DNA of 64,000 nucleotides, taken from positions 120,281 to 184,280 of the IMG/VR virus record IMGVR_UViG_3300040786_000030; one strand, 5' to 3'. Origin of the DNA: a virus. Under the pieces are notes generated by a model that was not told the origin of the DNA, made no database searches, and saw nothing but the letters and a program-made list of their open reading frames with translations. This document shows, piece after piece, positions 10,698 to 64,000 of this stretch. The position numbers were made by a program, and so were the translations under genes. Every line of letters starts with the position of its first letter. The stretch's first letter is position 1.

Positions 10698-11211
10698 TAT
10701 GAGAAATTTTAGAAGAAATATTTTTAGTAGTGAAATTGAAAGTGGTGGTGTATCAGGTACGTCTTATCAGCTTCAAAACGGAGGACAATCTGACGCAACT
10801 TATAGCTACAGAGAACCAGGAACTAATACGCTAATTAGTACATTTTAGGTGGATTTGAAACTACTACAATTTGTGCTGTAAATGGTTCAGTATCAGCAGA
10901 AAGCGCAATCAACGTATCAGAACTTGGGTCTTGTTAATAATTAAATAAATAATGATTAAATAAAGAGATAAATGGCACAATTATTAAAAAAAATAGAAGG
11001 AGAATTTCTAACCAATGTTGAAACAAAAAATTGGCTTAAAAGCTGTATTGGGCGAAATACAAGACCGAGATTTTATTAAACTAAATGGTTTAATTGCTTT
11101 ATTACAAAATTTTAGTAATATTGAGGAAACAATAGAATTATCTAAACCAATTAATTTTGGGTTAGTGAATAGTATTAACATGGCTAGAATAGAATTACAA
11201 ATTAATTACTA

Positions 11212-14836: not shown

Positions 14837-14839
14837 AAG

Positions 14840-45980: not shown

Positions 45981-46121
45981 TCCTTACCTCCACAAATTAT
46001 TAATAATTGTTCAGAAATGATTCTATCCATAACACCTTTTGGAATAGAACTAACAACCCTCGATAAATCGCTTTGTCGGGGTTAATTTTTTTCATTTTTT
46101 GTATATTTATAATTAAAAGAA

Positions 46122-46438
46122 ATGCGAAACTTTATAAATAAATTACTTAGTGGTGAATCAGAAATATCTAGCAAAAGGTTTATAACACTTGTTGCTTTTT
46201 CTTAATGGGAACTGGTTTTATTACCAATTTATTTTGGGGTTTAACAGTTGAAGAATTTATATATGATTCAATGAAATGGATTGTAATTGGCGGTTTAGGG
46301 TTTACAGCTTCAGAACAATTTAGTAAAACAAAGAATGATAAGGATAATAATACTAAACAAGACACTAACGACGAAGAACCTATAGATTATTATAGTGATA
46401 AAAATAAAGGCCCATATGGGCCTTTAAATTATTCTTAG
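46122..46438 (+). CDS. small membrane protein (holin-like?)
   Basis: ISSKRF motif plus two transmembrane helices and a charged tail. Confidence 0.4.
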
Positions 46439-46867
46439 GTGGTTTGCACCCACAATCTTTTGTGCTTTCATAGTTATATTTTTAGTTAATGTTATGTTAT
46501 TTATAAATACTTTACAAAGTAAAAATAGTTAATATATTTATATATGTTAAAAGAAGAATATACGGTATCAATACTAGATAGTAAATGGAAAGAGGTAAAA
46601 AGAAATATTAATATTTTATTTATACCTAGAAAAAATGAATATATATACTTAGATGAACAATATTATGAAGTAATAAATATTGTACATGTAATTAATGAAA
46701 AACAAGATATTTTATAATTATTGACGAGGTAGTTAAAAAGAAGTACCATAAAATGCTGATAATCAGGTGTTTAATAAATAAGTTAAAAATAAGGTAAAAA
46801 AACTTGACATAACACGTATTTATTAGTATCTTTGTATATAATTAATAATAAACGTTCTTAAATATCT

Positions 46868-47058
46868 AAAAATAGTTTCGGCATACAAAAAAAACAATTA
46901 GAGAAAAGTTGTGAGTCTTGGTTACTTATTTAACGGAAATACAATGTGTTTTCTTATAAGTTCACGAAAGTGTAATAAAACTCATCATGTTATGGTATCA
47001 TGTAAAAGTTAACCCATGAGCACGTTAATCATGTAAAATAATACGAACCACTATTTTG
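46868..47058 (+). ncRNA. structured ncRNA, CAGCAA family copy 2 (long, divergent)
   Basis: AAAATAGT-TTCGGCAT ... CGAA-CC-ACTATTTT-G closing stem; follows promoter TATCTTTG near 46827. Confidence 0.5.
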
Positions 47059-47069
47059 AGATAATAATA

Positions 47070-47126
47070 TGGTAAAAGAATCAGTTCAGCAATTAAAACT
47101 TATAAAGTAAAAAATGATTCTGACCA
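47070..47126 (+). ncRNA. structured ncRNA, CAGCAA family copy 3 (short)
   Basis: TGGT..AGAATCA-GTTCAGCAA...TGATTCT-G-ACCA. Confidence 0.6.
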
Positions 47127-47132
47127 AATAAA

Positions 47133-47193
47133 TTACTATTTGCACCGATATGTGCGACACTGAAAAGTGAGAGGTGTAACCCCTTTATAGTAA
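47133..47193 (+). tRNA. degenerate tRNA-like element (Phe-like loop)
   Basis: TTACTAT/ATAGTAA acceptor, GCAC/GTGC D stem, CAC-TGAAAA-GTG, non-canonical T arm. Confidence 0.35.
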
Positions 47194-47200
47194 ACTAAAT

Positions 47201-47274
47201 AGCGGAATAGAGCAGTAGGTCAGCTCGCAAGGCTCATAACCTTGAGGTCGTAGGTTCGAATCCTTCTTCCGCAA
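47201..47274 (+). tRNA. tRNA-Met(CAT), initiator-like
   Basis: Canonical cloverleaf, CTCATAA loop, 1:72 mismatch. Confidence 0.9.
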
Positions 47275-47300
47275 CAACGTTGGAGAACATAAACTCATAT

Positions 47301-47367
47301 GGGGAAGTCGTCTAAGATTAAGAACCACCATTAGGTGGTGATAATGGTTCAAGTCCATTCTTCCTTA
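47301..47367 (+). tRNA. tRNA-like RNA with a 4-nt loop in place of the anticodon loop
   Basis: GGGGAAG/CTTCCTT acceptor, AATGG-TTCAAGT-CCATT T arm, ACCACC-ATTA-GGTGGT arm. Confidence 0.6.
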
Positions 47368-47373
47368 CTAAAT

Positions 47374-47446
47374 TGCGAGGTAGAGCAGTAGGTAGCTCAA
47401 CAGGCTCATAACCTGAAGGTCGGTGGTTCGAGTCCATCCTTCGCTA
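47374..47446 (+). tRNA. tRNA-Met(CAT), initiator-like
   Basis: Cloverleaf, CTCATAA loop, U1:U72 mismatch. Confidence 0.9.
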
Positions 47447-47450
47447 CAAA

Positions 47451-47513
47451 AGAATAGTTACAGCAAATAAACAAAACTTTAAATCTTAATTAAACTAAAA
47501 ACATACTATTCTG
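47451..47513 (+). ncRNA. structured ncRNA, CAGCAA family copy 4 (short)
   Basis: AGAATAGT-TACAGCAA...TTTAA-ATCTTAA-TTAAA...ACTATTCT-G; terminator at about 47521-47548. Confidence 0.6.
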
Positions 47514-47576
47514 AAACACAAATCCTCACTCAAAAGTGGGGATTTTTATAATAATAAAGACTAAAACAAGTAAAAA

Positions 47577-48255
47577 ATGAAAACAATTCATTTAGAAATC
47601 AGAGATGGTAACGGTGGGTCCGATGCAAAGCTATTAGTAACACAAATGCAAGACATTTACACTAAAACAGCTAAAATTAACAATCTAGAATGTTCAATAG
47701 TTGACGTTAGAGATGGTTTTGTTCATCTATGTCTTTAGCGGTTCTGACCCAAAAAAATATTTAATAATGAACAAGGTGTGCATTCTTGGCATCGAGTCCC
47801 ACCAACAGAAAAAAAAAGGTAGAGTTCATACAAGCTCCATAACAGTTGTTATTTTAGAAGATAATAACTATAAAGAGAAAAACCTTTCAACTAATGAAGT
47901 TAAAATCGAAACAACTAGAGGTCAAGGTCCAGGTGGTCAGCATCGGAATACCACAGATTCAACGGTTGTAATAACTCATGAATCCACAGGTATCAAAGTT
48001 GTTAGGAATGGAAGATGTCAACATAAGAACAAAGCTGAGGCTTTAATTGAATTAACCAAAAGAGTTAATGAATTTTATAGATGTGGACATAATTCTATCG
48101 ACATTGAACATCGAAGAGGTCAGATAGGTAATGGTGAAAGAAGTGATAAACGAAGAACATATCGTGTAAAAGATAATTCAGTCAGTGACCATATAACAAA
48201 CAAAACAGCGTCACTAAAAGATATACTTAGAGGTAAAATAGAATTATTATCATAA
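47577..48255 (+). CDS. RF1-like class I peptide chain release factor (domains 2-4 only), with a candidate programmed +1 frameshift
   Basis: LEIRDGNGGSDA; EQGVH.WHRVPPTEKKGRVHTS (RF1-type PxT); GPGGQHRNTTDS; GERSDKRRTY; CTT TAG C at 47733-47739. Confidence 0.85.
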
Positions 48256-48720
48256 TTAAATTCCCCAATTGGGGAATTTTTTATTTAAAAAGTTAGAATA
48301 TTTAAATAAATAAATGTATCTTTGCTTTATGATAAATATGTTATAGATATGGGTATGTTTGATTTTTTAATAAATAGTAATAAAAAGCTAAGGTTGGTAT
48401 AGAATATATCTATCTATCAAATACAGCTTGGGTAGGTGGACTGAAAACCAGTCAAATATGGGTCAATTATGGTAGATGTTATTAAACTACCTAATGATTC
48501 TTTTGAGTTTACCGATAAATTGAGTGGAATTAGATATACAACTAATTATGGGTGGTCTTTAGCTGAAAACACACCAGAGAATATAATGAGTATTAATGAT
48601 TATTTAGTATCTAATGCTAAATTAGAAATATTAGAAAGAAGTACAAGATTATTACGTAAGAAAATAAATGACTTAAATGGTCCTAGTAAAATAAATAATA
48701 ACGATTTAAAATAGAAAAAT

Positions 48721-49232
48721 ATGAATAATAATAAATTTCCTAAATTACTCTTGGTTGGAAATATGAGACATGGGAAAGATTCAATGGCTGAAATACTAGG
48801 TGAAAATTTTGGTTTAAAATTTAAATCGTCATCACAAGCTGCTGCTGATATTTTATATATGATAAATTGAAGGTTAAGTATGGTTATAAAACATCTGAAG
48901 AATGTTTTGAAGACCGAGTAAACCATAGAAGTGAATGGTATGATATGATATGTGAATATAATTTAAATGATAAGGCTAAATTAGCTAAGGGTATTTTAGA
49001 AATCACTGATTGTTATGTTGGAATGAGGGATAGAAATGAAATAAGCGAGTGTATTAATCAAGGGTTATTTGATTTAATTGTTTGGGTCGATGCTAGTGAT
49101 AGATTACCGTTAGAGGATAGTTCATCGTTTAATATTGATAAAGCATGTGCTGATGTTATATTAGATAATAATGGTACTTATGAACAATTTGTTGAGCGTG
49201 TTATTAGGTTTGGTAAAGTTTTAATAAAATAA
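48721..49232 (+). CDS. P-loop kinase, dNMP-kinase-like (frameshifted)
   Basis: LLLVGNMRHGKDSMAE Walker A; YVGMRDRNE; ILDNNGT. Confidence 0.65.
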
Positions 49233-49800
49233 TTATGGCATATATAAGTAATGTTGAATACGAAAATATAAAAATGGTGCTATGGATGGTACCAAGGAAA
49301 ACCCAGTTATTGGGAGATTTGATAAAACTATAAATTAGCTCTATATTTAGGTTACAAATTAAAATGGGATTATGATTATAGTTATAATAATTCAATTAAT
49401 GGTTATTTTCATGTAATAGAACCAATGTTTAAAAAAATCATATAATAGGTTTGACTTTGAATACGTGTCTGATGATACAATTAATTATACTTGGGATTTC
49501 ATCATGGTAGAGGTTCTGCCTAAAATTAAAGAAGATGGTCTTTACGATGATACTATGAGTAAATCGTTAAATGATTTAGATTTAGTATCTCTATTTAATG
49601 CTATTATGGTAGTTATAAATAAAAAATATATTTAATATTTACTTGTATATTTAAAATATAGTTGTATATTTGCACAAGATAAATGAGGTGGTAACTTTTA
49701 CTAGGATAAAAATCGTTGAAGCTAATAAGACAATTAGGTTGGTAAACAATACGTTGGGAGCTAATAGTTGAGAAAATAAAGCGGTAATAAATAACCAAAT

Positions 49801-49872
49801 GGTCTATTGGTCGAGTGGTAAGATAGTAGTCTCTAAAACTAAAGATGGTGGGTTCGAGCCCCACATAGACTA
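49801..49872 (+). tRNA. amber suppressor tRNA (anticodon CTA)
   Basis: GGTCTAT/ATAGACT acceptor, D arm, TAGT-CTCTAAA-ACTA (CTA at 49833-49835), GTGGG-TTCGAGC-CCCAC. Confidence 0.85.
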
Positions 49873-49885
49873 CAAAAAATAAGAT

Positions 49886-49956
49886 TCCGTGTTGTGGGTA
49901 ACGGCAACTTAACCTCGAAAGCAGGGGTGATTCTGGTTCGAATCCAGAGCACGGTA
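49886..49956 (+). tRNA. tRNA-like RNA with atypical anticodon loop (GAAAGCA)
   Basis: CCGTGT/GCACGG acceptor, TCTGG-TTCGAAT-CCAGA T arm; loop lacks U33. Confidence 0.55.
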
Positions 49957-50019
49957 CAAATTAACTTGACTTTTAATTAAATGTCATATATTTATTATTA
50001 ACAAACAAAACAATAAAAA

Positions 50020-50368
50020 ATGAAGTAGGTAAACGAAAAATTAAGGGTAGTTACAAGACGAGATTTAAATCTTGCACATCAAGCAGTTCAATCTGGACAT
50101 GCAGCTATTGATTTTCAACATGAACACTTAGTTGAAGCAAAACAATGGCAAACACAATCAAATTATTTAGCATTTTTAACGGTAAACGATGAACCAGAAT
50201 TAATTAAATTAATTTCTAAGGCAATACTAATTGGTATAAAGCACACTATTTTTTAGAGAACCAGATATAGGTAATCAAATAACAGCTGTAGCGTTTGAAC
50301 CAAGTGATTTATCTAGGAAATTAACTAGTTCATGTAGTTTATTAGGGAAGGAGTTATCCAATGCTTAA
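50020..50368 (+). CDS. Pth2-like peptidyl-tRNA hydrolase with in-frame TAG at codon 3
   Basis: ATG AAG TAG, then KLRVVTRRDL..AHQAVQSGHAA...FREPDIGNQITAVA; one extra T near 50254. Confidence 0.7.
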
Positions 50369-50620
50369 TATATCAATACAAAAGAACTGATATTATTTTA
50401 CACTTTAATAAAATGCATTTACAAGATGCTAACATCCCAATGTGGGTAATTAAAGCTAAGGTCAGACATATTATGTAAATCATGTTGATATGGATTCTGG
50501 AATTGGTTTTCAACAAAAGAAACACCAGATAATCCATCAACAAAGGGTTCATTAAAATTTAAAGGTAAGTTAGATATAACTGATGAAAATAATACCGTAA
50601 ACGCAAGGATTTACGGTTAA
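50361..50620 (+). CDS. hypothetical protein (frameshifted)
   Basis: FHFNK..IPMWVIKAKG..YYVNHVD..STKETPDNPSTKGSLKFKG. Confidence 0.45.
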
Positions 50621-50625
50621 AACAA

Positions 50626-50694
50626 GGCGAGGTAATCAAATGGTAGGTACAGTTTTGAAAGACTGGTATGTTGGTTCGAATCCAGCCCTCGCCT
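50626..50694 (+). tRNA. tRNA of undetermined identity (6-nt loop TTGAAA)
   Basis: GGCGAGG/CCTCGCC acceptor, CAGTT/GACTG stem, canonical T arm; possible homopolymer deletion. Confidence 0.6.
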
Positions 50695-50730
50695 CTGATA
50701 ATAATAATAATAATTTAAAAAATAGAAACT

Positions 50731-50757
50731 ATGAAATAGATACGAAAACCACCTTAA
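50731..50757 (+). other. mini-ORF M-K-amber-I-R-K-P-P-ochre
   Basis: ATG AAA TAG ATA CGA AAA CCA CCT TAA after an A-rich initiation region. Confidence 0.5.
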
Positions 50758-50829
50758 GTTTTATTACTTTACATGACTCGGATATTCAGTTATCAATAAA
50801 ATAAAATTATAAAACTTAAAAAAAACAAA

Positions 50830-51199
50830 ATGAAAACACAAGAACAAAAAATGAAAGAAGCAAAAATTATCTTACTACGTCAGCACAACATTTATTTATC
50901 GTTAATGATAAATTTATTTTAAACTTATAGAATTTGAAGTAGATGGTAAATTACATTATGCTAAATTAATGGTTAACCCACAAAGTGTGACAATTACAAA
51001 TATTGTTACGACTTGGTATAAGCAGAGTTATAAACAAGATTTGTTTCCACAATATTTAAAAAAAAATCGATACCTCATTTTAAAAAAAATGAAAGAAATT
51101 ATAGAATTAGTTAAACGTGATATTAGTTTAACTGATAATAAAGTTTTAATTGAAAAGATTAAATTATTAGCCAACAAATTTGAAATTGTAAAACAATAA
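50830..51199 (+). CDS. hypothetical protein (frameshifted)
   Basis: ATG at 50830, fragment 50969-51199, terminator at about 51211-51232. Confidence 0.4.
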
Positions 51200-51264
51200 A
51201 ATAATAAATTAAAGGACCTTATGGTCCTTTTTTATTTATCTGTATAATTATAAATAAAAATAAG

Positions 51265-51731
51265 ATGAAAAATTTAATCAAATTTATATTATCATTGTTT
51301 AAGGTTAATAAAAAATTACCTACGAAAACTTATACAATTAAATCACGTAACCCTGATGTATTTGAGAGTAAGGTTTTAGCTTTAATAAATGAATATAGAA
51401 AACCTATTAATCTTCCTGAATTGAGATGAATAAAATTGTTTGTAATGTATGTTTTAAGAACAATGAGAGGATGATTTTAACGAATAACTTTTCGCATGAT
51501 GGTGCGGTAGAAAGATTTAATGAAGTCATGGCAATTTGTGACAGTTATTATGCTGCTGAAAATTTAGCAAAAAAATTATAATACAGCTGAATCGGTGGTA
51601 AATGCTTGGATAAAAAGTGATACACATAGGAAAAATTTAGAATGTGCTAAATGTAATAGTTTTGGTATATCAGTTACAAAGATAGTTCCAATATCAATTA
51701 TTATACAACAATGTTTACTATAATTGATTAA
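51265..51731 (+). CDS. CAP/SCP domain protein (frameshifted)
   Basis: LINEYRK, FSHDG, AENLA, VVNAWIKSDTHRKNL. Confidence 0.75.
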
Positions 51732-51819
51732 ACCATTCGTTTACAATTATTAAATTTGAACTACATTAATTAAATGGGCCTATTATGGGCCTTTTTTATT
51801 TATATCGATATTTATAATT

Positions 51820-53772
51820 ATGAAATTGTTAATTAAAAAATTACTTAGAGAAAACATACAGTTAGCTGATAAACTTTATTTTAATCAAAATAAATTATCA
51901 CCACAAGCTAGAGAGCTTATCCTTAGAATAACTAATGGTGACCCCTATACTAAACTAATAACTGATATGTACTATTATCAATTATTTAAAAGTCATAAAA
52001 TGGATAGTTCTGCTATGGCTGGTGCTGACCCAAATTATAAAGAAAGTGAAACTCCTGAATCTGATATTTTAGCTATGCAAGATATGAAAGATATTAAAGG
52101 TTTATATAATATATTAAAACATATAACAAAAATATTTTCCCAATAAAGAGTTTCAATATCAATGGTGTTGATGACATTGGTACTTTTATGCGCACATTGA
52201 AAAATAGAGAAAAGATAATACAAACTTTAAATAGTTTACCATCAATAGCTATTAGGAATATGAAAAATGATATTCGACAAGAAAGAGATTTTAGCGAAAC
52301 TAAAGATTATATGCAAGAACTAGACTATTTTCAAGGGTTATTTAGTCAATTGGGTAATAGAGATGTTGAATTAAGAAAAAATATTGAAAAGAAAATGTTT
52401 AGGTCTAATATTACGTTAGAAGATTTATTAGATTTTGCACAAGAAAAGGAAAACTTATTAGGTGGTGTAGAATTCACAAAGCAAAAGATAATCGAAATTG
52501 TTAAAGAAGAAAATAATGAATACGATGAACTTAAAATAAAATTTAATAAGGGTGATGTTATGGTGATAGAAGTATCTGGACCTAACGGAATAAAAAAAAT
52601 TGGATGTAATTCATTGTGGTGTTTTACATATGGTAGAAATGGGGCGATGAATTATAATGACTGGTATAATTATTCTACAAATGACTTAGTATATGTTATA
52701 ATTGATTTTAAAGAACCAACTGATTCGCCAGACTTTATGCACGTTCTAATTAAACCTTTAATGGTTGATTACTCGGTTGTTGGTAGTGATGGTGACGATG
52801 TTTTATTTAATATGGCAAATAGTGGTGAGGAAGAACCTAATTCCATAATTCAACATTATTTTGACTTTGATTTCGCTAAAGACTTATGAATTTTGGTGTC
52901 AAAACCAGAGAGAACCCCAAAACCTAAAAAAAATAGAACAGACCCAAATCAATTATCGATTGACTTTAACCAACCAGCTGAAATAAACGAATATGATGAT
53001 GAAGAAGATGACTACGAAGATGACGAAGATGAATATTATTATGGTGATGAAGAACAATATTTTAAACCTAAATTAGATGCTGATGTTAAAGCAAATAGTT
53101 CTAGATATGAAGGTAGAAACGTTGTTTGGTATGGTTCTATTGGTAATATGATTGTTTTAACTAGAGATGAAGTAGATGGTATGACTGGTAATATCTACGA
53201 TGAGGAAAAATTAGCTTATTTAACCAAACTAATACGTGATTACCCTGAAAAGGTTGAGTTAGAATGTTCTTACGCTCACGGTCATGTTATTAATCTTATA
53301 GATATTAAAGAAGAATTAGAATCATTTTATAATGATAGATTTGTTGTTGAATACGATGGGCATGAAGAACCCAACCGTACTGGTGATGAAGAACTTGATG
53401 AATATATTGGTAAAGACCTTGATAATAATTATTGGTATAATTTAGATTATGATAATGATAATATTGAACCATTTTTTTGAAAAATAGAACAAGTGTCGCT
53501 CAAGGTAAAAGTGTAGATGAATTAACATTAGAGTTTAAACAATTAAACCCAACAGAAAATGAAATCGATACCTTTAAAGAATTTATTAATATGGAGAACA
53601 AATTAAAAGATGCTCAAGCTAATGATGAGGGTGATTTTAATAAATTTAAAGTACAATTAGAGATGGTCACCATAGAGTATTCGCAGCCTTAATTCAGGTG
53701 AAAGATATGTTTGTGTTGATTTAGTTGATGATGGTATTAAAAAATATAAAGGGTATTATAATTTAGTTAAAT
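51820..53772 (+). CDS. large acidic hypothetical protein (frameshifted)
   Basis: Fragments 51820-52146, 52188-52889, 52893-53480 and 53477-53692; GCNSLWCF motif. Confidence 0.5.
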
Positions 53773-53773
53773 A

Positions 53774-55197
53774 ATGGAAAATTTTATAAAAAAATTACTA
53801 AGAGAGTCTTTGATTAATGAAGGTGTAAGTGATATTACATATCATTTTACTAACACCTATAAACTTGATGAGATTCTAAAACAAATAAGATTAATTTATC
53901 AGCAGCTTTTGGTTCACCTTCTGATAATGAGATAAATAAAAATAAATTATTTTTCTTATCTACTACTAGTTCAAGAAATTCTGATATTGGATACGCTGCC
54001 TCATTACCTAAAGATAATATGGTTAGAATAACCTTAAATGGAAGGTTATTAAACCAGAATAACAAATCTACTAGGGTTGACTATTGGCAAAGACCTAAAG
54101 ACCCTAGAAACAAGCTCTATAACCCAAATGATGTGCCTACAACTGGTAAAGACTTCTATAAAAAGTATCTAGACAAGATGAATTAGAAGATAGGTTTATT
54201 AGTGATAAAATGAGATTAAACCAGCTAATAAATATATAATATCTATTGAAATTTTAGTGATAATAATATGGGTAAGTTGAAATATTTAAGTGATAATCTA
54301 AACATACCATTTTCGTTTATGATAATATAAATTATTTTAATGGTTCAGTTAAGAATAAAGCTATTGAAGTTGCTTCTGATAGTATACCTAATGATGTTGA
54401 AAAACGTAGAGGTTATCTTGATACTAATATTATTGCATATTTAGTTTTAGAGATGATAAATTAAGAGCTAAAATATTTAATGATATACAAGCTTTGATAT
54501 TGATATTGATTGGGTTAAAAATAAGGTTGATGATAAATGATAAATTAAATTATTATTTACGAAATGGAAGTGAATTTTATATAAATGATTTTGCGAGCAG
54601 TATGAGTGCTGATGTACATAATATGAGGTCGAGTTCAAATGAATTTGATAGATACCTAATAAAAGAATTGGGTATGGATATGAAAAGGAATAATGTAAAC
54701 TCAATCAAGGGTTATTTAAATTATAAAGTTTGAAGGGTAAAAAACTCAAAATGATTATAATAAAGAGCTAAACCAAAAATTTATGAACTTTATTGAAGAT
54801 AATTTTAAAGAACAAATTAGCAACTATACAAATTACTCTTTTGATGCTGATGGTGTTGAATATGAAAATATTTTAGATTATAAACCAATTATGGATTTAT
54901 TTAATAACTTTTAATAAAACTAAAAAAATATGTTTCAGATTATATGTTAACTAATGATGATATGTATAGATTAAAATATGTTTTAGATAGCTCACATATT
55001 AAAGAAACTGTAAATATAAGCAAACCTGAAATCAATAGTATACTAGATAATATTGATTTTATGGTAGTAAATTTACTGCCGATGATGTTAAAGCTATATT
55101 ATATTATATTGTAAGTGATTTTAGTAATTATGCATATGATGAACTAGAACAAGCTAAAAAGAATTTAATGAACAATTCACATAAAATATTTGTTTAA
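53774..55197 (+). CDS. hypothetical protein (frameshifted)
   Basis: ITYHF..INLS..FFLSTTSSR..VDYWQ..DELEDR coding-like stretch. Confidence 0.4.
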
Positions 55198-55224
55198 TCA
55201 ATAATTTAGTAATATCTTTGTTGC

Positions 55225-56400
55225 ATGAAAAATAAGATAGAACAAATATTAGGTGAAGGATTAGTTATTGGTAAACGAATTAAATTTGATTTATCAATAC
55301 CTGAAGATATTAGTGAGTTAAACCATATCTTTAAAAGAAATGGTTTTGAACTATTTATTGTTGGTGGTGCTATACGTGATGCTTTATTAGGTAAATCACC
55401 AAAAGATTACGATTTAGCTACCAATGCTTTACCTGACAAGGTTGAAGAAATGATGAATACAAACAACATTAGAACTATAGCTACTGGTAAAGCATTTGGT
55501 GTTATTAATGTATTTACCAACCAAGGGGAATACGAAATAGCAACCTTTAGACATGATATTGGCTCTGATGGTAGAAGACCAGATAGTGTTAAATTTACTA
55601 ATATTGAAGGGATGTTAAAAGACGGACCTCACTATCAATGCACTTTTACGATATTGAGAAAGGTGAGATTGTTGACCTTGTTGGTGGTATTAATGATATT
55701 AAAATGGTGTTGTTAGAACGGTTGGTTTAGCTGAAGATAGATTTGGTGAAGATAGACTTCGTATTCTTAGAGCAATTAGATTTGCTGCTAGGTTTGGAAG
55801 TGAATTAGAGACAAAACTGATATAGCGTTACAAAAAAATGCAAATCTTGAAGGTATTTCCAGTGAACGTATTAGAGATGAATTCATCAAGGGTATTAAAT
55901 CGGCTAAATCAACATCAGCTTTTTTAATGTTGAATGATAAATACGAATTGTTTGATTGGATATTCCCAGACTTAAAATTGTCAAGAGTATGTTTAATAGA
56001 GGTGATGATTATATGTTTAATGATTACTTAGTTGTTTTAGCTAGGTTATTAAAAAACAATACCGTTGAAACTATTAGAGAAAAACTAAATATTTTAAGTT
56101 ATTCTACTACAGAAATTAAAGGTATTATATTCTTAGTTACGTTATTAAAATTAGATTCTGATAATGCGTATTCCTGAAAAATCCCATTTAAAATCTGGTA
56201 TTAGTAATAACCAAATTAGAGATTTTGGTTCAAGTGAAGGTATTCCATCTCAATTGCTAGATGCTTTTGAGGAATTTACATTAACAGTTTCTGGGTCAGA
56301 AATTATGTTTGATTTTAATTTAAAGCCTGGTAAAATGTGGGTGAATTGATGCAAAAAATAGAAACAGAAAACTTTAACAAAATATTAAAACCTTATCTAG
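55225..56400 (+). CDS. CCA-adding enzyme / poly(A) polymerase family nucleotidyltransferase (frameshifted)
   Basis: FIVGGAIRDALLGKSPKDYDLATNA, EIATFR, DLTINA, RFGEDRLRILRAIRF, ISSERIRDE. Confidence 0.9.
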
Positions 56401-56457
56401 TAAACTCTAAATAAGGTTTATTTTAATTAGAAAATAGTTATAATTATAAAAAAACAA

Positions 56458-56799
56458 ATGGCAAAATACTTAGCAACATTTAGTGATGTAATCGATGAAA
56501 CCGAAATTAATGGTTTTACTATTATGTCTGATAAAGAAATCGAGAAATTAGAAGAACTAGCATCAAGTATCACTTGGGCAATCTATTACAAATTTGATAA
56601 TGGTAGTGAATTAGAATATTCTGATGGTGAAGATTTAATATCACGAATTGAGTTTAAATTACTATCAGCAAGTGATGTTGAAACAATTGGTAAATTATTT
56701 AATGATAGTTTTGGGGTTTTATTGGGATGGATTTTTATTAAGTATTATTAACGATGTTGATGATGAAGAAGATATCGAAGACGATGACGAAGACGATGA
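56458..56799 (+). CDS. hypothetical protein with acidic tail
   Basis: 97-aa ORF plus frameshifted D/E tail. Confidence 0.45.
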
Positions 56800-57245
56800 G
56801 TATTAATTTCTTTAAACAACCGACTGGTAATACTTGGTCCAACATGTTTAAAAATGGCGCAATCAACTATACTAGGTTTAACGGATTCTAACTTTCCAAC
56901 TATAGATGAAATTGCTATAATTTGTGGTACTGACTGGTTTGTAGGTACACCACCAGATAGAATGAAAAGGTATGGAAGCATTAAAAATGGTGTATACTGA
57001 ACATATTGGCTCTAGATACCCATTTTATTATTAAATAGTGTTATAAATGATGGTAATATAGCTATTATTAGAACAATAAGCACTGGTGTTCCACATTGAT
57101 AATCCCAGTTAGTTATGTAGATAATATTTATAATATTAATGACCCATGGTTAGGTAGAATACAATACAGTATAGAGGAATTAAAAGTAATTTGGGGTATA
57201 AGAGATTATCAATTTTTGAAATTAAAACAATGGAGATAAAATAGG
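56796..57245 (+). CDS. C39-like cysteine peptidase (frameshifted)
   Basis: KQPTGNT(C)GPTCLKM, GVPH(W) and INDPWLG catalytic-triad motifs. Confidence 0.65.
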
Positions 57246-57672
57246 GGTTCCAATAGAAAAAAGAGTTGAATTTGCTAACTGGGCATACCCTCATTTTAAA
57301 CATGTTATTGGTAAAACAATCTTTGATTTAGTAATTAATGATAGCGTAGATTTTCGAAAATCAGCATATATTATACAAGATGATACACTTTTAGGTCTTT
57401 ATCTATTAGGCCCTACCCAAATCTATAACCCAATCTTTAGTAAATTATTAGGGATTGAAGGTGTGTTATTAGCTGTAGATGAGTCGATTAGAGGTATGGG
57501 TTGGGGTAATAAATTAAAGATTACCCAAAACACTTAACGTTGATTATATTTGGGGTTACCAAGCTGCTGGGTTAAATAATATAGAATATTGGTTAAAACG
57601 TAGGGTTTTAGTTAATAAAGAAAATAATTGTTACGTTACTTGTGAGATTTTGCTGATGACGTGATATTTATT
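57230..57672 (+). CDS. GNAT acetyltransferase (frameshifted)
   Basis: EGVLLAVDESIRGMGWGNKL acetyl-CoA-binding motif. Confidence 0.65.
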
Positions 57673-57683
57673 AATAAAAACTA

Positions 57684-58157
57684 ATGAGAAGATTTGATAA
57701 ACAAAAAAATATCGCTGCTGCTAATTTATTATCAGAGCAAAGACACTTAACAGATAGAGACTCTGTAACTGAAGATTGGAAAACAAATGTAGCTGCTGGT
57801 TTAGCAACTATTGGTGGTGTGGCTGGAGCTAACGCTCAAACAAATAAACCAATGGCACCACAACAAGGTAAAGAGATTCAATATTCACCAAGTGAAAACC
57901 CACTTCAAATATGGCTAACCCATATGGTACAAAGGATGATTCAACTATTCACCCAAGAACAATACCAATCGTTGGTATACAATCAGGTGTGACTGATGGT
58001 AAGAGTGGACAATCAGCTGTTTATGTTTATCATAATCATTTACCAAGTGACCCTAATTTTAATGTTAAAAGAGATAGGAAACAGTTTATACTAAAATTTA
58101 TCTGACTTATATAAAACACAAGAATATCAAGAATATAAAAGAAGTCTTAATAAATAG
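57684..58157 (+). CDS. hypothetical protein (frameshifted)
   Basis: Fragments 57684-57992 and 57911-58105. Confidence 0.45.
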
Positions 58158-58235
58158 TAGTAATCTAATAATCAAGTAATTACAAAATAAAATAAAAATA
58201 ATTGTAAAAGACTTGCTTTATCTAAATAACCTTAG

Positions 58236-58243
58236 TATATTTG
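58236..58243 (+). promoter_or_regulatory. Bacteroidota-type -7 promoter box TATATTTG
   Basis: TAnnTTTG with TTG about 20 nt upstream; precedes the leader and tRNA array. Confidence 0.65.
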
Positions 58244-58324
58244 CATAAGAATTAAAACAAACAAAATAGTCTTTTATAAAAGACATATATTTATAACAAA
58301 TGGAGAAATCAAAAATAAAAAAAA

Positions 58325-58423
58325 ATGAACACAATTAACATACATATGATATCGATTAGCAATTGGAGACGTAATAGTCATCTAATGTCGGGTATGTTAA
58401 ATACTGGTGGTACTGAAGTATAA
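58325..58423 (+). CDS. putative attenuator leader peptide MNTINIHMISISNWRRNSHLMSGMLNTGGTEV
   Basis: 32-codon ORF after an A-rich initiation region; contains antiterminator GTCGGGTATGTT at 58387-58398. Confidence 0.65.
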   Translation: MNTINIHMISISNWRRNSHLMSGMLNTGGTEV

Positions 58424-58447
58424 ATTTTAGAACACTTATAACAATAT

Positions 58448-58480
58448 AACCCGACTAGAGAAATCTAAGTCGGGTTTTTA
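58448..58480 (+). terminator. attenuator terminator
   Basis: AACCCGACT-AGAGAAATCTA-AGTCGGGTT followed by T-run. Confidence 0.8.
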
Positions 58481-58663
58481 ATTTAATTAAGTTATGGAAC
58501 ATGTAAGAAGATTAGGTAGAGAGAAAACTATAAATTTTAAAAAAGATTTTTATTTAATAGTTGATAAGTACAGACTGATTGCAAATGCAAGTGGTTATAA
58601 TGGAGAATTAAGATTTCAAAAGAAGGTGGATTTACAGCTATTTTCGTTGAAATTAAAAATAAT

Positions 58664-58746
58664 GGAGAGGCAAGCCAATAGGTGGTTGCCACAGTTTTGA
58701 AAACTGTTCGGAGACAATGGCTCGTGGGTTCGACTCCCATCCTCCG
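58664..58746 (+). tRNA. tRNA-Ser(TGA)
   Basis: ACAGT-TTTGAAA-ACTGT, long variable arm, T arm. Confidence 0.8.
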
Positions 58747-58753
58747 CAAACAT

Positions 58754-58828
58754 GGTGATTGTAGCTCAGTTGGTTAGAGCGTTGGACTGTGAATCCAAAG
58801 GTCATGGGTTCGAACCCCATTTTTCACC
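58754..58828 (+). tRNA. tRNA-His(GTG)
   Basis: G-1, TTGGA-CTGTGAA-TCCAA. Confidence 0.9.
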
Positions 58829-58866
58829 CAAAAGTTGTTCGTTGACATATCGGTAAATATAAATAC

Positions 58867-58937
58867 ACGTCTATAGTGCAATGGTAGAATACGGGTCTCC
58901 AAAACCCTAGATGTAGGTTCGAGTCCTACTAGACGTG
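58867..58937 (+). tRNA. tRNA-Trp(CCA)
   Basis: GGGT-CTCCAAA-ACCC, canonical arms. Confidence 0.9.
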
Positions 58938-58947
58938 CAAAATAAAA

Positions 58948-59019
58948 GATTTGGTAACTCAGAGGCAGAGTGGCTGTTTGTTAGGCAGCGGGTCGAGATT
59001 TCGAAATTCTCCCAAATCG
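58948..59019 (+). tRNA. tRNA-Asn(GTT), divergent
   Basis: GCTGT-TTGTTAG-GCAGC; GATTTGG/CCAAATC acceptor. Confidence 0.7.
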
Positions 59020-59026
59020 CAAAAAT

Positions 59027-59100
59027 TCTTCAATAGCTCAGTTGGTTAGAGCAACGCACTGTTAATGCGTGGGTCCTAGGTTCGAGTCCTAGTTGGAGAG
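59027..59100 (+). tRNA. tRNA-Asn(GTT)
   Basis: ACGCA-CTGTTAA-TGCGT, canonical. Confidence 0.92.
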
Positions 59101-59210
59101 CAAAATAAGTGAAAATAAATTAGGTATATATGTAAAAGTTATATCTTTGCAAAGCAAACTGAGCGTGGTGCTCGTATATTATCCATGTCTAGAAATGGTA
59201 CACCACTAAT

Positions 59211-59295
59211 ACTATGCTTGACTGAGTGGCCTAAAGTGACTCCGTTAAAGGAGTGCCCTGTAAAGGGGCCGTAGGTTCGAATCCTACACATAGTC
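59211..59295 (+). tRNA. type II tRNA, probably Leu(TAA); 6-nt loop as assembled
   Basis: ACTCC-GTTAAA-GGAGT, long variable arm, canonical T arm. Confidence 0.6.
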
Positions 59296-59302
59296 TAAAA
59301 AT

Positions 59303-59388
59303 GGCGAGGTGTCAGAGTGGCCGATTGAGCTGGTCTTGAAAACCAGAGGCCGTGAAAGCGGTCCAAGGGTTCGAATCCTTTCTCGCTT
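59303..59388 (+). tRNA. tRNA-Ser(TGA)
   Basis: CTGGT-CTTGAAA-ACCAG, long variable arm. Confidence 0.85.
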
Positions 59389-59458
59389 CAGTTTAATTAT
59401 CGCAGTGATTGCGGCAATTATCACCGCAAAGTGATTAAACTATAAACATAGGGTAAAA

Positions 59459-59544
59459 TTCATTGGCAATCGGCTCGGAAAGCGCATCGAGAGTTAGATA
59501 TACGACTTAGTATGGAAAAAGTGGTTCGAATCCACCCAATGGAG
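59459..59544 (+). ncRNA. tRNA-like RNA (acceptor + T arm, non-canonical middle)
   Basis: TTCATTGG/CCAATGGA, GTGG-TTCGAAT-CCAC; two non-tRNA hairpins between. Confidence 0.5.
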
Positions 59545-59913
59545 CAAGAAAAATAAAATATTAGTAAATAAAATTAATAAATTATGAGTAAACAAAATGA
59601 TAAATGGCTTGCCACCTATGCACTTTATTTTAGATAGTGAAACACGTAGGATATATGAAGGAGACTTTATTCAATATTTTGGTTCAAAAGATGTTTATAT
59701 GTTTAAAGCAATATATTTCCAATCAATTGTTGATATCAACCTAAAAGTACTAGAGGTTGGTGATGAAGTGTGTTATGTCTTTGGTACTGGGTTAGATAAA
59801 GGGTTATAGAAAGTATCACACCATTTGAATTTGGTACAAGTGGACCTAGGATTAAAATTAAGGGTAAGAAAAATTAATTAACGCATTTAATATTATGAAA
59901 ATATAAAAATAAA

Positions 59914-59995
59914 TTGAGATATATCGAGGCACGCTGATAACGTGTATATTCGTAACTGGTTATTGTAAATGTGGGTTCGAATCCATTGTCTCAAC
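59914..59995 (+). tRNA. non-canonical tRNA-Ile(GAT) lacking a normal D arm
   Basis: TTGAGATA/TGTCTCAA; GCACG-CTGATAA-CGTGT; GGTTCGAATCC. Confidence 0.65.
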
Positions 59996-60000
59996 TAAAT

Positions 60001-60083
60001 TGGTCTGATACCGAGGCACACTCATAATGTGTATAGTCGTAATTGGTATGTTGTAAATGTGGGTTCGAATCCACTTGGACCAC
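60001..60083 (+). tRNA. non-canonical tRNA(CAT) (Ile2 or Met) lacking a normal D arm
   Basis: TGGTCT/GGACCA; GCACA-CTCATAA-TGTGT; paralog of 59914-59995. Confidence 0.65.
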
Positions 60084-60148
60084 AAAAAATAGGTTATTAA
60101 AATTATTTAACTTATATTTGCATTTATTAATTATAAAAAAATAAGGAT

Positions 60149-60379
60149 ATGAGTTTTACTGGGTTTATGTTTGCTTTTATGTTAGCATTATTAACATTCT
60201 ATGTTAATCAAAGAATAGCGAAAATGACTAACATTAAAATATTAATAAATACATTATTTGACATTTATGGTGGTGAGCAAGCGTTTGATGATTTTGATAG
60301 TAAAGAAGTTGCTACCAGATTAATGAATGAAATAATCAATATTGAAAAGATGAATGATAATAATTTTATGTTAATTTAG
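60149..60379 (+). CDS. small membrane protein
   Basis: N-terminal transmembrane helix; promoter TATATTTG at 60113. Confidence 0.45.
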   Translation: MSFTGFMFAFMLALLTFYVNQRIAKMTNIKILINTLFDIYGGEQAFDDFDSKEVATRLMNEIINIEKMNDNNFMLI

Positions 60380-60722
60380 AATTAGAAACTTTAAAAGAAT
60401 TAAGGTTAGTCTATTATCGTTTTACAGATAAAGAGATAGCTAAAGAACAAATTAATTCTTTATGTTTTAATAGGTTAACTAGGAGTTTTATAATATTAGC
60501 TTTTTAGATATAATCCCACCAAACATTAGATAATTAAATGATGAAACAATGATAAAAATAGAACAAGAAAAAATTGAAGAAGTTTACGCTTATTTAGATA
60601 AAATGGGTTTTAATTACACGATAGATAAAACCCTACACCTGAAAAGATTGCTAGGATAAAAGCGCAAATAGAAAAAATAAAGAAAGGTTTATTATTAATA
60701 AATAAATCCTTATACTTGTAAT

Positions 60723-61265
60723 ATGGAGATATTAGTAGTAGATATAGAAACAACTGGGTTTTAGTAAATTCAGATGCAATTGTTGAGATTGGGATTAGCC
60801 TTGTCAACACACAAACAAATGAAATAAAATTAGTTTTGATAATGTTATCAAGGATAAGAAGTTTAAAAAATGGAAACATAAAACGCTTGATTTTTAATAA
60901 TACGACACTTGAAGTTAGTGACGTTGAAAAGCTAAAACTTTAGAAAGTTATTTTGATGAAATTCAATCCCTTTTAGTAAATATAAAATGACCGCTTATAA
61001 TTCAGCTTTTGACTTAAGATTTCTTAGGGTGCTGGTTTTATTATTGACGATATTAAATGTTTAATGAAAACAGCTACTAAATATTCTAAATATAAGGATA
61101 AAAATGGTAGGGTTAAAACCAAGTGTTGAGGAAATTTATAATCAATTTTTCATGAAAAAAGGTCAAGTTTATATCGAAGAACATAGGGCTGGTGCTGATG
61201 CACTTGATGAGGGTAAAATACTTTTACATATGGTTAAATTAAAGAATAAAAGATTAAAAAAATAA
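60723..61265 (+). CDS. DEDDh 3'-5' exonuclease (DnaQ-like; frameshifted)
   Basis: LVVDIETTG, IVEIG, AYNSAFDLRFL, HRAGADALDE. Confidence 0.8.
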
Positions 61266-61268
61266 AAT

Positions 61269-61337
61269 GCCGAGACTTATTGGAAAGAATTACCTTTCAT
61301 ATGGGTAGTCAAGTCGGTTCAACTCCGATACTCGGTA
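61269..61337 (+). tRNA. degenerate tRNA-Met(CAT)
   Basis: GCCGAG/CTCGGT; TACCT-TTCATAT-GGGTA; weak D arm. Confidence 0.55.
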
Positions 61338-61352
61338 CTATATTAAATACAT

Positions 61353-61425
61353 GGCCCTATCGTTCAACTGGATAGGACTTAGCAGTACGATTGCTAGAAT
61401 CAGGGTTCGAATCCTTGTAGGGTCA
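61353..61425 (+). tRNA. tRNA-Arg(ACG)
   Basis: TAGCA-GTACGAT-TGCTA; canonical arms. Confidence 0.85.
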
Positions 61426-61446
61426 CAATTTTAAAAATATTAAAAG

Positions 61447-61519
61447 GCCCCTATCGTTTAACTGGATAGGACACAACTCTTCTAAAGCTGTAATCTGGGT
61501 TCGAATCCCAGTGGGGGTA
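61447..61519 (+). tRNA. tRNA-Arg(TCT)
   Basis: CTTCTAA loop; canonical arms. Confidence 0.88.
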
Positions 61520-61568
61520 CAAATGGATAATTACGAGAGTGGTCATTAGAACAGCTCAAAATATTAAT

Positions 61569-61652
61569 GGAGAGGTACCCAAGTGGTTAAGGGCCTGTTT
61601 GCTAAATAGGTAGGGCTCGTAAGGGTCGCATGGGTTCGAACCCCATTCTCCA
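61569..61652 (+). tRNA. tRNA-Ser(GCT)
   Basis: CCTGT-TTGCTAA-ATAGG, long variable arm. Confidence 0.85.
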
Positions 61653-61727
61653 CACACACTTACATAACCAGAACTTTTTAAATTATTTAGATATTTATGA
61701 TTAATGTAAATCAAATATTAAATAGTT

Positions 61728-62392
61728 ATGAAAAATAAAATACAATCAATATTAAGAGAATCATTAAATAAAACAATTATTGAAAATTTAATAGATGAGG
61801 ATTACCCAATAAATTTTAATATGGATGAATTTAAGGGTTTAATAACATTTAAAGATAGAATAACATATTGTGATAATAATTTAAAGAAAATATCTTCTGG
61901 TAGCGGTAGAATTGTTTATATGATTGATGATATAAAAGTATTAAAATTATCTAAAAAATAGTAAAGGTTGCTCAAACTAAAACTGAATCAGAATGGGGTC
62001 AAGATAGTTATTTTTCAAATATATTAGCACACACATTTGATTTTCACCCAGAATATTTATGGATTGAAATGGAGTTAGCTAGAAAGGTTACAAGACGTAA
62101 TTTTATAGAAATTGCTGAGTGTAGTATTGACAATATGTCTTATTATTTAAGAAATGACTATTCAGAAAGAAACGGTCAAAACCTTTATTTGGTTTAGATA
62201 AAGATATCAAAGCTGAATTAGACGAAACCATTTTGTTAGTTTAGTAAAAGATTTTATGGGAAATACACAATCTGATGTTGGTGATTTTGGTAGATTAAAT
62301 AGTTACGGTCTTGTAAATAGAAATGGTGTTGACGATATTGTAATTATTGATTTTGGGTTAACTAATGATATATATGATACCTATTATAGTTA
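61728..62392 (+). CDS. protein-kinase-like fold protein (frameshifted)
   Basis: ISSGSGRIVY..KVLK, WIEMELA, GDFGRLNSYG, IVIIDFGL. Confidence 0.6.
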
Positions 62393-62825
62393 ACGAATAA
62401 AGAATTCATTTATTTGATGTAATACGTTTAATTCTTGATAAGGTTGGTCTGTTTTAATATTAGTAACTTCTTTATATAAAAGTTCTAAAGAATCAGGGCT
62501 TTTAACTATATAATCATTTGCTCCACCCACTATATACTCAAAACCACCTTAATATCTTTTGGTTTGATAACACTATAATTGGTGTTGAAATATCTGTTTC
62601 TCTAATTTCTTTCAAAACGTCTAAACCAGTTAACCCATTTAAATCATTTAAAGTATGGTCCAATACTAGTAAGTCTAATATTGTGTCTTTATCGTTAAAA
62701 TATTCTTCACGTGAGGTATATTTCAATATCTCTACATCTTTATCTTTCTTTAGTATATAACTAATCATAGCTGAATATAGTTTACAATCATCAATTATCC
62801 CAACTAAAATTTCGTATTATTCATT
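62388..62825 (-). CDS. stand-alone response regulator receiver domain (frameshifted)
   Basis: GIIDD, LLVLD, GLTGLDVLKEIRE, PIIVLS, GANDYIVK. Confidence 0.8.
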
Positions 62826-62921
62826 GTTACAAGTTATTAGGTATAACTATAAATACCTTAAAAAATATAAAATGATAAAATATAGTTAAAATTAATATTA
62901 TAACAATAAAAAATAGTATAT

Positions 62922-63865
62922 TTGCACATGAAAAATAATATAAAAGAGACATTAATAGATAATACCGTTAAAAATTCAATGGGTATTAATATTACAAAAC
63001 CAAATTCAGAATTGATAATTTGTCGTGGAATCCCAGGCTCTGGTAAATCTACAAAAGCAAAATCTTTGGTTAAAAATGGTCGAATACATTCGACTGATGA
63101 CGTAATAGAGGCCAGTGGTGATTACAAATTGTTTTTTGAGACTATGATAGCATCAGAAGATTTTAGGGGTTTAAATAGAGCGCATTCAACGAACTTAAAA
63201 AACGCTATAGAATCAATGATTAATGATGTATCACCTATTATTATAGATAATACAAATATTAAAGCCAATGAATCTAAAGCATATGTTGTTAAGGCGCTAG
63301 AGTTAGGTTATAAAGATAGTAATATTTCTGTTGTAGATATTGGTACTGGTGGTTTAACAGCTAAAGAATTATCTGAAAGGAATACACATGGTGTTCCATT
63401 TGATAAAATAGAAAAGATGATTCAAGTATATAATTCAGTTGGTGAGTTGACAATTAAAAGATATTAGATTCAGCTGATATGTACAAAAAGTCAGATATTC
63501 TATATTCTGCGGTTGTGTTAAGCCAAGCGACTAAAAATAAATTATTAGAGGTTGTTGGTGATAGAATACCAGAGGGTTGGAAAATAATTGCACACCATAT
63601 GACAATTTCGTTTGGTAAAGGTGTTAAAAACAAAGAAGATTTGGGTAAATCAGTTAATTTAACTGTAACCGATTTAGGTTTAAGTGATATGGCTATGGCT
63701 GTAAAGTTAATGGTTATGATAGTTCTAATGATATAGCACACATAACTATCGCTATAAATCCAAATGGTGGTAAACCAGTTATGTCAAACCAAATAACCAA
63801 ATGGCAAAATATTAAACCATTTATTGTAGTTGGTATTGTAACTGATATAAAAAAGGTGCTATATA
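62922..63865 (+). CDS. polynucleotide-kinase-like P-loop protein, probably fused to a 2H phosphoesterase (frameshifted)
   Basis: ICRGIPGSGKST, IIIDNTN, RNTHGVP; then HHMTI and HITI 2H motifs. Confidence 0.75.
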
Positions 63866-64000
63866 GCACCTTTTATTTGTTTAATTAGGTTAAATATTAA
63901 TATCTTAAAATATAAGATTAAAGGAATGTTAAATAAAAATATTTTTAAATGGAAAAAACGAATTAGCTAATTATGTTCTTAATGAACTTAACATAACAGA

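Follow-up and report, generated by a model that had tools for sequence, protein, structure and literature searches.

Leader-peptide attenuators, such as those of the trp, his and ilv operons, respond to charged tRNA. The enterobacterial leaders include trpL, hisL, leuL and pheL, and some of them are multivalent, with the ilvGMEDA leader addressing isoleucine, leucine and valine and the thr leader addressing threonine and isoleucine. To our knowledge, such attenuators regulate amino-acid biosynthesis or synthetase genes throughout, and the control of tRNA genes acts at promoters and not by sensing of their products. Here we describe a short leader frame that precedes a tRNA array in a phage and whose codons match the anticodons of that array. 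The locus lies at 58,236 to 61,652 of a 64,000-nucleotide stretch of IMG/VR virus record IMGVR_UViG_3300040786_000030 (positions 120,281 to 184,280 of the record), which we call the window. Its source contig (G000) is 193 kb long with 28% G+C. Coordinates refer to the window and its plus strand unless a contig is named. The leader is probably a transcription attenuator that opens a small gene and the tRNA array only when a ribosome stalls at codons 4-17, which are read by the tRNAs of the array. A sequence-only reading of the window had proposed such a sensor, and its coordinates for promoter, leader, terminator and antiterminator, as well as its codon list, were confirmed in the sequence.

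The phage unit shares several features with the enterobacterial leaders, namely a short and probably translated leader, putative regulatory codons in a region 1, predicted alternative 1:2, 2:3 and 3:4 pairings, an intrinsic terminator ahead of the first gene, and several amino acids per leader. However, the enterobacterial leaders regulate biosynthetic enzymes, whereas the phage unit would regulate tRNA genes and one small protein. About 15 consecutive codons, for about ten tRNA species and eight amino acids and without runs of the same codon, make up the phage sensor, unlike the enterobacterial ones. The enterobacterial leader stop is located between regions 1 and 2, whereas the phage frame extends past region 2 and has its stop in an inner hairpin. 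The phage unit would also be one of four parallel channels that cover the genetic code together, again unlike the enterobacterial leaders. The pheST attenuator of E. coli, with its leader pheM, likewise controls a gene of the translation apparatus by leader attenuation with charged-tRNA feedback. It governs a synthetase and senses one amino acid, whereas the phage unit would act on the tRNA genes directly and respond to many amino acids. T-box RNAs (RF00230) are similar in that the status of tRNA selects between antiterminator and terminator 5′ of translation-related genes. However, a T-box binds uncharged tRNA directly through its specifier codon and T-box sequence, with no ribosome involved, whereas the phage unit would use a translated frame, and the T-box covariance model found no match in 46000-64000 (E ≤ 1). 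Because its downstream genes are a 62-aa protein and tRNA genes, the phage unit falls outside the existing named attenuator families. Phage tRNAs have been described as replacing host tRNAs that are depleted or cleaved (PMC10264068, PMC11464382, PMC11555353); by their abstracts, these papers deal with carried tRNAs and escape from cleavage, and not with a sensor that switches the tRNA genes on. No description of leader-peptide control of tRNA genes was found in the full-text literature, a coverage from which subscription journals are excluded.

The leader frame (58325..58423; MNTINIHMISISNWRRNSHLMSGMLNTGGTEV) has 32 codons, with an ATG start and the stop codon at 58421-58423. Its sensor block comprises codons 2-18 (58328..58378), with codons 4-18 as the matched core and codons 2-3 as an A-rich start context. 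Using a neighbouring kinase of 181 aa as query, we obtained 17 related loci, and in 13 of them the leader DNA was 68-85% identical, though the kinase there was only 52-67% identical. Scanning IMG/VR for a 20-nt motif of the leader, we obtained 49 stretches, with 38 elements and four chance matches among them; 34 of the elements were distinct. The 38 elements carry the peptide M-R-T-I-N-I-H-M-I-S-I-S-N-W-R-R-N-S and belong to uncultured large phages. Among cultured phages, no DNA match to the leader was found, and the kinase gave distant protein matches only. Of 108 motif matches in bacterial genome contigs, two (L144 and L169) contained the leader; they assign no host to the element, because both contigs are short or possibly misbinned.

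A promoter of the Bacteroidota type precedes the leader (58213..58243), with TTG at 58213-58215, a 20-nt spacer and the -7 box TATATTTG at 58236-58243. We take TTG-N17-21-TAnnTTTG to be the Bacteroidota consensus, following the Bacteroides and Flavobacterium literature. This pattern was found 26-87 nt 5′ of the leader ATG in 32 of the 33 elements with sufficient upstream DNA, and the leader promoter was the sole full two-box site on the plus strand between 56000 and 64000. A scan for sigma-70-type promoters was uninformative (55 promoters against 51.4 expected from shuffles), and the accompanying terminator scan missed the bulged hairpin at 58450. The 5′ untranslated region contains a hairpin, GTCTTTTATAAAAGAC (58269..58284), in the minimum free energy (MFE) fold, and a small hairpin is equivalently placed in several relatives.

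The region 58260-58500 folds at -50 kcal/mol (z = -4.75), and none of 200 shuffles was as stable. Region 3 (58443-58459), region 4 (58465-58474) and a T tract (58475-58479) form an intrinsic terminator (58443..58479), whose hairpin CCCGACTAGAGAAATCTAAGTCGGG (58450-58474) is bulged, has a free energy of -13.3 kcal/mol and is followed by five T residues. An intrinsic terminator was found in all 37 elements with downstream DNA. Alignment of whole leaders with MAFFT and RNAalifold missed the helices, since the terminators were shifted relative to one another. This problem was solved by fitting a covariance model to the terminator alone, which aligned 39 matches, 33 of them distinct. The terminator helix was paired in 97.3% of the alignment cells and showed compensatory changes in eight of eight pairs; its covariation score was 0.824, compared with 0.206 in shuffles, and none of 500 shuffles reached 0.824.

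The antiterminator strand, GTCGGGTATGTT (58387-58398), is complementary to 58443-58455 (RNAduplex, -16.2 kcal/mol). It belongs to region 2 (58380..58399; core GTCGGGT at 58387-58393), which can pair with region 1 or with region 3 and which RNAduplex placed at codons 19-28 in 34 of 34 elements. We tested the antiterminator on the terminator-only-fitted alignment of 33 distinct sequences. In all 33, the bases immediately 5′ of a conserved TATG formed 5-10 consecutive pairs with the 5′ arm of the terminator, with 21 sequences using a first register, eleven the next and one a third, while the other five registers gave runs of 1-5. Treated by register, the helix was 83.3% paired with compensatory changes in seven of nine pairs, and 81.8% paired with six of nine, against 21-52% in slid controls; under one fixed register the value was 72.7%, as two registers exist. 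Splitting the sequences by register is partly circular, though within each subset the result stands against both shuffled and slid controls. Examples of the covariation are GTCGGG/CCCGAC, GGTCAAGG/CCTTGACC, GAATTCGG/CCGAATTC, GGTTCGGG/CTCGAATC and GAGACG/CGTCTC. Region 1 (58335..58356), the 5′ strand of a predicted anti-antiterminator, contains TTAACATAC (58335-58343) and TCGAT (58352-58356). The MFE folds of nascent leaders had the strand at codons 4-7 holding region 2 in 34 of 34 elements (AACATAC/GTATGTT, with additional class-specific pairs), and this 1:2 helix was 82.4% paired compared with 18-49% in slid controls. Enclosed by the antiterminator is an inner hairpin with the leader stop codon in its loop (58406..58437), and a hairpin at the end of the frame was predicted in most relatives. 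The sequence-only reading had called for folding of the alternative structures, and the helices of both terminator and antiterminator covary among the relatives. At the level of sequence, the anatomy, conservation and covariation of an attenuator are therefore documented.

The codon and anticodon content of the locus also corresponds. Against a conservative set of the window tRNAs, 12 of 18 leader codons match (P = 2.4e-5), and 17 of 18 match when the GAT and CAT genes are added (P = 2e-8). Among 120,634 windows examined in G000, all those with at least 16 of 18 matches lie inside the leader. The match, for which a permutation check had been proposed, is far above both the shuffled and the genome-wide expectation, and the noted lack of K, E, D, F and Y codons at the start of the leader is likewise improbable by chance (P = 7e-4). 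In 30 arrays, tallied at a lowered ARAGORN threshold, nine anticodons recur: GTG and GCT (30 arrays each), ACG, CCA and TCT (29 each), TGA (28), GTT (27), GAT (25) and CAT (23). These nine core anticodons account for 317 of the 362 array tRNA genes. The phage's own downstream array reads 408 of 510 codons at positions 2-18, compared with 131 of 417 tail codons, which equals the background; conversely, the sensor contains codons for 242 of 251 anticodon species of the arrays. In the consensus sensor, 16 of 17 codons belong to the set and all nine anticodons are covered, whereas among 145,434 random 17-codon windows of these phages full coverage of the nine occurs once, and at most 13 codons fall in the set. 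At variable positions, 27 of 34 alternative codon types fall inside the array-read set, while about 15 are expected from mutational neighbours (P = 3.5e-5).

The way in which the leader varies bears on whether it acts through translation. The ATG occupies the same position in 34 of 34 distinct elements, and the frames of 27-36 codons end at an in-frame stop 26-41 nt 5′ of the terminator hairpin in all 37 elements with sufficient downstream DNA. The serine at codon 12 is encoded by AGT (13), AGC (8) or TCG (10), and codon 16 varies among CGC, CGT and CGA. As judged from these sequences, the alternation at codon 12 is a signal at the level of decoding and not of RNA sequence. A translation-independent switch, in which the leader RNA would bind a protein, a metabolite or tRNAs directly in the manner of a T-box and the frame would be incidental, could account for the strong nucleotide-level conservation of the sensor, which extends to synonymous sites (AAC, CAT and TCG do not vary, the last at codon 10), for the missing Shine-Dalgarno sequence and for a fold far better than that of shuffles. 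It would not explain why the start codon and the position of the stop are kept, nor why serine is retained across AGY/TCG switches that alter all three bases. Rfam also gave no family, T-box included, at E ≤ 10 in 58200-58760, and in 46000-64000 no non-tRNA family was found and RF00230 was unmatched at E ≤ 1. A T-box had been considered from the likeness of TGGTGGTAC (58406-58414, the 5′ side of the inner hairpin) to the core of the motif, and was rejected since the model did not match. We regard such a switch as very improbable.

Alternatively, the product could be a functional micro-protein or an arrest peptide like TnaC or SecM, which would act by its peptide sequence while the terminator merely ends the transcript. 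Consistent with this idea are the near-invariant residues N5-I6-H7, S10-I11 and N13-W-R-R-N-S18 and the C-terminal motifs GGTEV, DIIEF and FFDDF, which recur within subfamilies. However, the variable positions exchange residues radically (M/R/I at position 8, I/M/N/S at position 9, and also positions 2, 4 and 12), and these unlike residues are still specified by codons that the array reads. The tail motifs overlap the inner hairpin and region 2, and in L054 the tail lies in a different reading frame with the RNA structure preserved. The covariation of the terminator-complementary segment with the terminator is a further point against a peptide effect, and we consider this explanation extremely unlikely.

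The correspondence between leader and array extends to further leaders. In the relatives G002-G007, of which G002 is near-identical and the other five are complete at 288-369 kb, we found thirteen further leader/terminator units, in three further classes. In each of the thirteen, a short open reading frame (ORF) contains the antiterminator strand at codons 18-28 and is followed, 25-32 nt past its stop, by a terminator. Class I, the unit of the window, has the leader NIHMISISNWRRNS and an array for His, Trp, Ser, Ile, Met, Asn and Arg. Class II leaders (..LLVLVLC..) precede Cys, Val and Leu tRNAs, class III leaders (..NIFDFAF.AAEED..) precede Phe, Glu, Asp and Ala tRNAs, and class IV leaders (..TYQ.QPKGGKP..) precede Pro, Gln, Tyr, Thr, Gly and Lys tRNAs. 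For leader codons 2-18 of 19 units, the match was 0.70 to arrays of the same class (n = 95) and 0.11 to arrays of other classes (n = 266), and in 18 of the 19 units a leader's own array was its best match within the genome. The expectation that leader codons follow tRNA content across related phages is thus borne out in four array types. The RNA sequences of the four classes are unrelated, and what they share is a frame-based design with an amino-acid composition matching their own arrays. This argues against a translation-independent switch, and a micro-protein would not predict three more peptide classes that mirror their arrays.

The G000 contig contains the class I unit only, and the class II unit of the window's phage lies past the contig end (L178:9211-9339). 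In G002, the class II unit (L178:9132-10432) consists of a promoter, the leader MKNLTILLVLVLCSLVVSTMGYSC, a terminator and the tRNA genes Cys-GCA, Val-TAC and Leu-TAG, which are separated by small ORFs. The other tRNA clusters of the window (47201, 49801 and 50626) showed no leader/terminator unit by eye, nor did a scan of the relative's copy (L177). One locus, L023:4414-7607 (oriented on the minus strand), has two class I leaders 1.56 kb apart, each with a terminator and a small protein gene; the region 2 and terminator sequences of the two differ from each other.

The mechanism that we propose follows the classical scheme. Translation of the leader would proceed alongside its transcription. 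When cognate charged tRNAs are plentiful, the ribosome would cross region 2 to the stop, and region 2 would be covered or re-paired with region 1. Regions 3 and 4 would then form the terminator, and the transcript would end at 58475-58479. If any of the approximately ten cognate tRNA species is scarce, the ribosome would pause in region 1 and leave region 2 free to pair with the emerging region 3. No terminator would form, and the small protein and the tRNA genes would be transcribed. The additional tRNAs would relieve the stall, so that stalling and readthrough may constitute a negative-feedback homeostat for decoding capacity. We modelled the ribosome footprint in 34 elements with RNA ending in the terminator loop and a 30-nt ribosome mask. 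In this model the antiterminator forms in every element (34 of 34) while the A-site is at any of codons 1-16. The share of elements drops to 74% at codon 17 and to 29% at codon 18, and codons 19-27 give 0-3%. The permissive stall zone and the block of matched codons therefore end at the same place in the model.

The same mechanics could also serve another signal, namely amino-acid starvation or a general slowdown of translation during infection, in which case the codon match would just time the operon to translation trouble. A shortage of any of the eight amino acids would likewise stall the ribosome, and the match and footprint results do not separate low tRNA from low charging. However, extra tRNA cannot cure amino-acid starvation, so the feedback would be lost, and the division of the code over four arrays with matched leaders would be difficult to account for if each channel did not monitor its own tRNAs. 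This alternative appears unlikely, and the evidence points to direct feedback, in which the ribosome would test the supply of a tRNA set on the leader and a shortage would open the genes for those tRNAs.

Several observations weigh against an attenuator that senses its own tRNAs. Among RNA sequencing runs, none was found that contains sequence of 57600-61700. The 1:2 helix is mostly invariant, with covariation in two pairs only, and with region 3 present it is no longer the structure favoured at equilibrium. Equilibrium folds of the full leader keep the terminator (mean probability 0.81-1.0) at any position of the mask, and therefore the switch would have to be kinetic or steric, as is the decision of the trp attenuator. 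The nascent model favours the antiterminator in the absence of a ribosome (31 of 34 elements) and also with a ribosome near or at the stop (61-94%, codons 29-34); termination after translation would therefore rest on sterics or on fast 1:2 re-pairing. No Shine-Dalgarno sequence was found at a working distance from the leader ATG, which would be expected if the host belongs to the Bacteroidota, a host suggested by the promoter type alone. Conservation of AAC, CAT and TCG exceeds what decoding needs and is therefore partly structural. With regard to the codons, ACA (Thr) occupies codon 3 in 33 of 34 leaders, whereas Thr-TGT occurs in just three of 30 arrays; it would be part of the start context, because codons 2-3 are A-rich (K, R, N, T) in all four classes. 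AAA, CAA and GGA also appear at codons 2 and 4, and the accessory tRNAs CCT, GGA, GTA and TTG have no mirror in the leader. The leader of L068 lacks a His codon and its array retains His-GTG; a joint loss of codon and tRNA had been considered there, and was dismissed because Infernal, and ARAGORN at a lower threshold, detected the gene. In L034, odd tRNAs that were checked as a mirror for its GGA and AAA codons have 6-nt anticodon loops. Finally, internal promoter boxes had been suggested at 59142 and 60113. The -7 boxes are present and might independently drive the distal tRNAs, while neither belongs to a full two-box site on the plus strand of 56000-64000.

The array itself begins with Ser-TGA, His-GTG, Trp-CCA, two Asn-GTT, a tRNA with an aberrant loop (59211-59295) and Ser-TGA (58663..59389), and ends with Arg-ACG, Arg-TCT and Ser-GCT (61353..61653), as identified with ARAGORN and Rfam. 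At default settings, ARAGORN together with Rfam called His-GTG, Trp-CCA, two Asn-GTT, Ser-TGA, Arg-ACG, Arg-TCT, Ser-GCT and the aberrant-loop tRNA in the window, and a second Ser-TGA (58663-58747) was called only at a lowered ARAGORN threshold. The same proximal genes were called in the close relative L004. Between the two groups lie two tRNA genes of atypical form, recognised by Rfam scores and folds, whose anticodon loops carry GAT and CAT (59915..59994 and 60002..60082). The sequence-only reading had counted them as the Ile-GAT and CAT tRNAs of the array; the anticodon loops are indeed there, whereas the genes are atypical and score 28.1 and 25 bits in the window, below the Rfam cut-off of 29. 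The better-assembled relative G002, approximately 99% identical, gives 38.3 and 35.2 bits, above the cut-off, and the low scores in the window are due to a T-arm CC where the relative has CCC. In both genes the D arm is reduced and the variable region is long. They belong to a family of atypical tRNAs in which the D arm is reduced or absent, an extended stretch precedes a conserved ...AAATGTGGGTTCGA T arm, and the anticodon loops are GAT, CAT, TAT, TCT or TCG; members also occur in L068 (contig 9678-9754 and 9943-10104) and L010:2270-2610. Several His, Asn and Ile tRNAs in these phages have long extra arms and a length of 84-90 nt, which is unusual for their isotypes. The anticodon loop of the type II tRNA at 59211-59295 (L004:6257-6343) measures 6 nt in the window, whereas the L004 copy has 8 nt (ttaa); the tRNA may be a Leu-TAA whose loop is distorted by homopolymer errors in either or both of the assemblies, or may have a genuine 8-nt loop.

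Assembly quality affects how the window can be read. Its ORFs are fragmented, the longest in the 193 kb being 444 aa with the bacterial code. The relative L003/L004 is 98.7% identical to the window, has additional bases in its A and T runs and encodes intact genes. The window assembly therefore carries many homopolymer errors. The A-run directly 5′ of the leader ATG differs in length between the window and the L004 assembly, and frame-based readings of the window need comparison with L004:1-20540. Upstream of the array, the window encodes an amber-reading tRNA (anticodon CTA, 58 bits, 49801-49873) with its own promoter upstream. This gene had raised the question of an alternative genetic code behind the broken ORFs, which was rejected: no stop reassignment yields an ORF longer than 484 aa, and reading TAG as sense still does not restore long ORFs in the error-prone assembly.

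The first gene after the terminator encodes a small conserved protein (58494..58700), frameshifted in the window and 62 aa long at L004:5531-5719. Proteins of this kind (55-68 aa) were present in 31 of 34 class I elements with the pattern M.ELVR.LG...GY.GEL.F.KE.G...FV, whereas leader classes II-IV lack the gene. No Pfam family matched the protein. Its AlphaFold model (pLDDT 85) has a strand-helix-helix-strand-strand order, and a comparison of the model with the PDB gave no fold match at E ≤ 0.001. Inside the array lies a gene for an RNase T-like exonuclease (60723..61265; PF00929, E = 1.4e-11), which is frameshifted in the window and encodes 183 aa in L004. It is part of a tRNA maintenance and repair neighbourhood around the array in L004 (L004:2225-3424, 7782-8333, 10001-10948, 13252-14384 and 14753-15880, corresponding to approximately 55200-64000 of the window and beyond), where a CCA-adding enzyme and a T4 Rnl1-type RNA ligase are also encoded, as well as NADAR and Nudix proteins and a fusion of a kinase with a tRNA-ligase-type phosphodiesterase. 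Just 3′ of the tRNA array, the opposite strand carries a gene for a lone response-regulator receiver-domain protein (L004:9465-9902, minus strand; window ~62390-62830).

Candidates for the natural trigger of the switch are a mismatch of codon usage between host and phage, decay of host tRNA during infection, and host defences that cleave tRNA. Because tRNA-repair genes adjoin the array, a tRNA-damage trigger, such as an anticodon-nuclease defence, would be plausible. We tentatively suggest, as a possibility on the doubtful side, a four-channel, codon-addressed tRNA supply, in which tRNAs for the 20 amino acids would be distributed over four operons, each gated by its own leader peptide, which would gauge how efficiently the codons of that operon are decoded. 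A collapse of host tRNAs would open the matching operon, class I would co-induce the small protein, and the adjacent CCA-adding, kinase/phosphoesterase and RNA-ligase genes would repair tRNAs in parallel.

If the feedback proposed here is correct, tRNA genes would become targets of leader-peptide attenuation, and the dosing of many tRNAs by large phages would find an explanation. A connection between phage tRNA arrays and the tRNA-destroying defences of hosts would also become open to testing. The leaders would represent natural, modular sensors of decoding capacity, available in four variants with different codon sets. They would make directly testable an old question in phage biology, namely the reason why phages carry particular sets of tRNAs.

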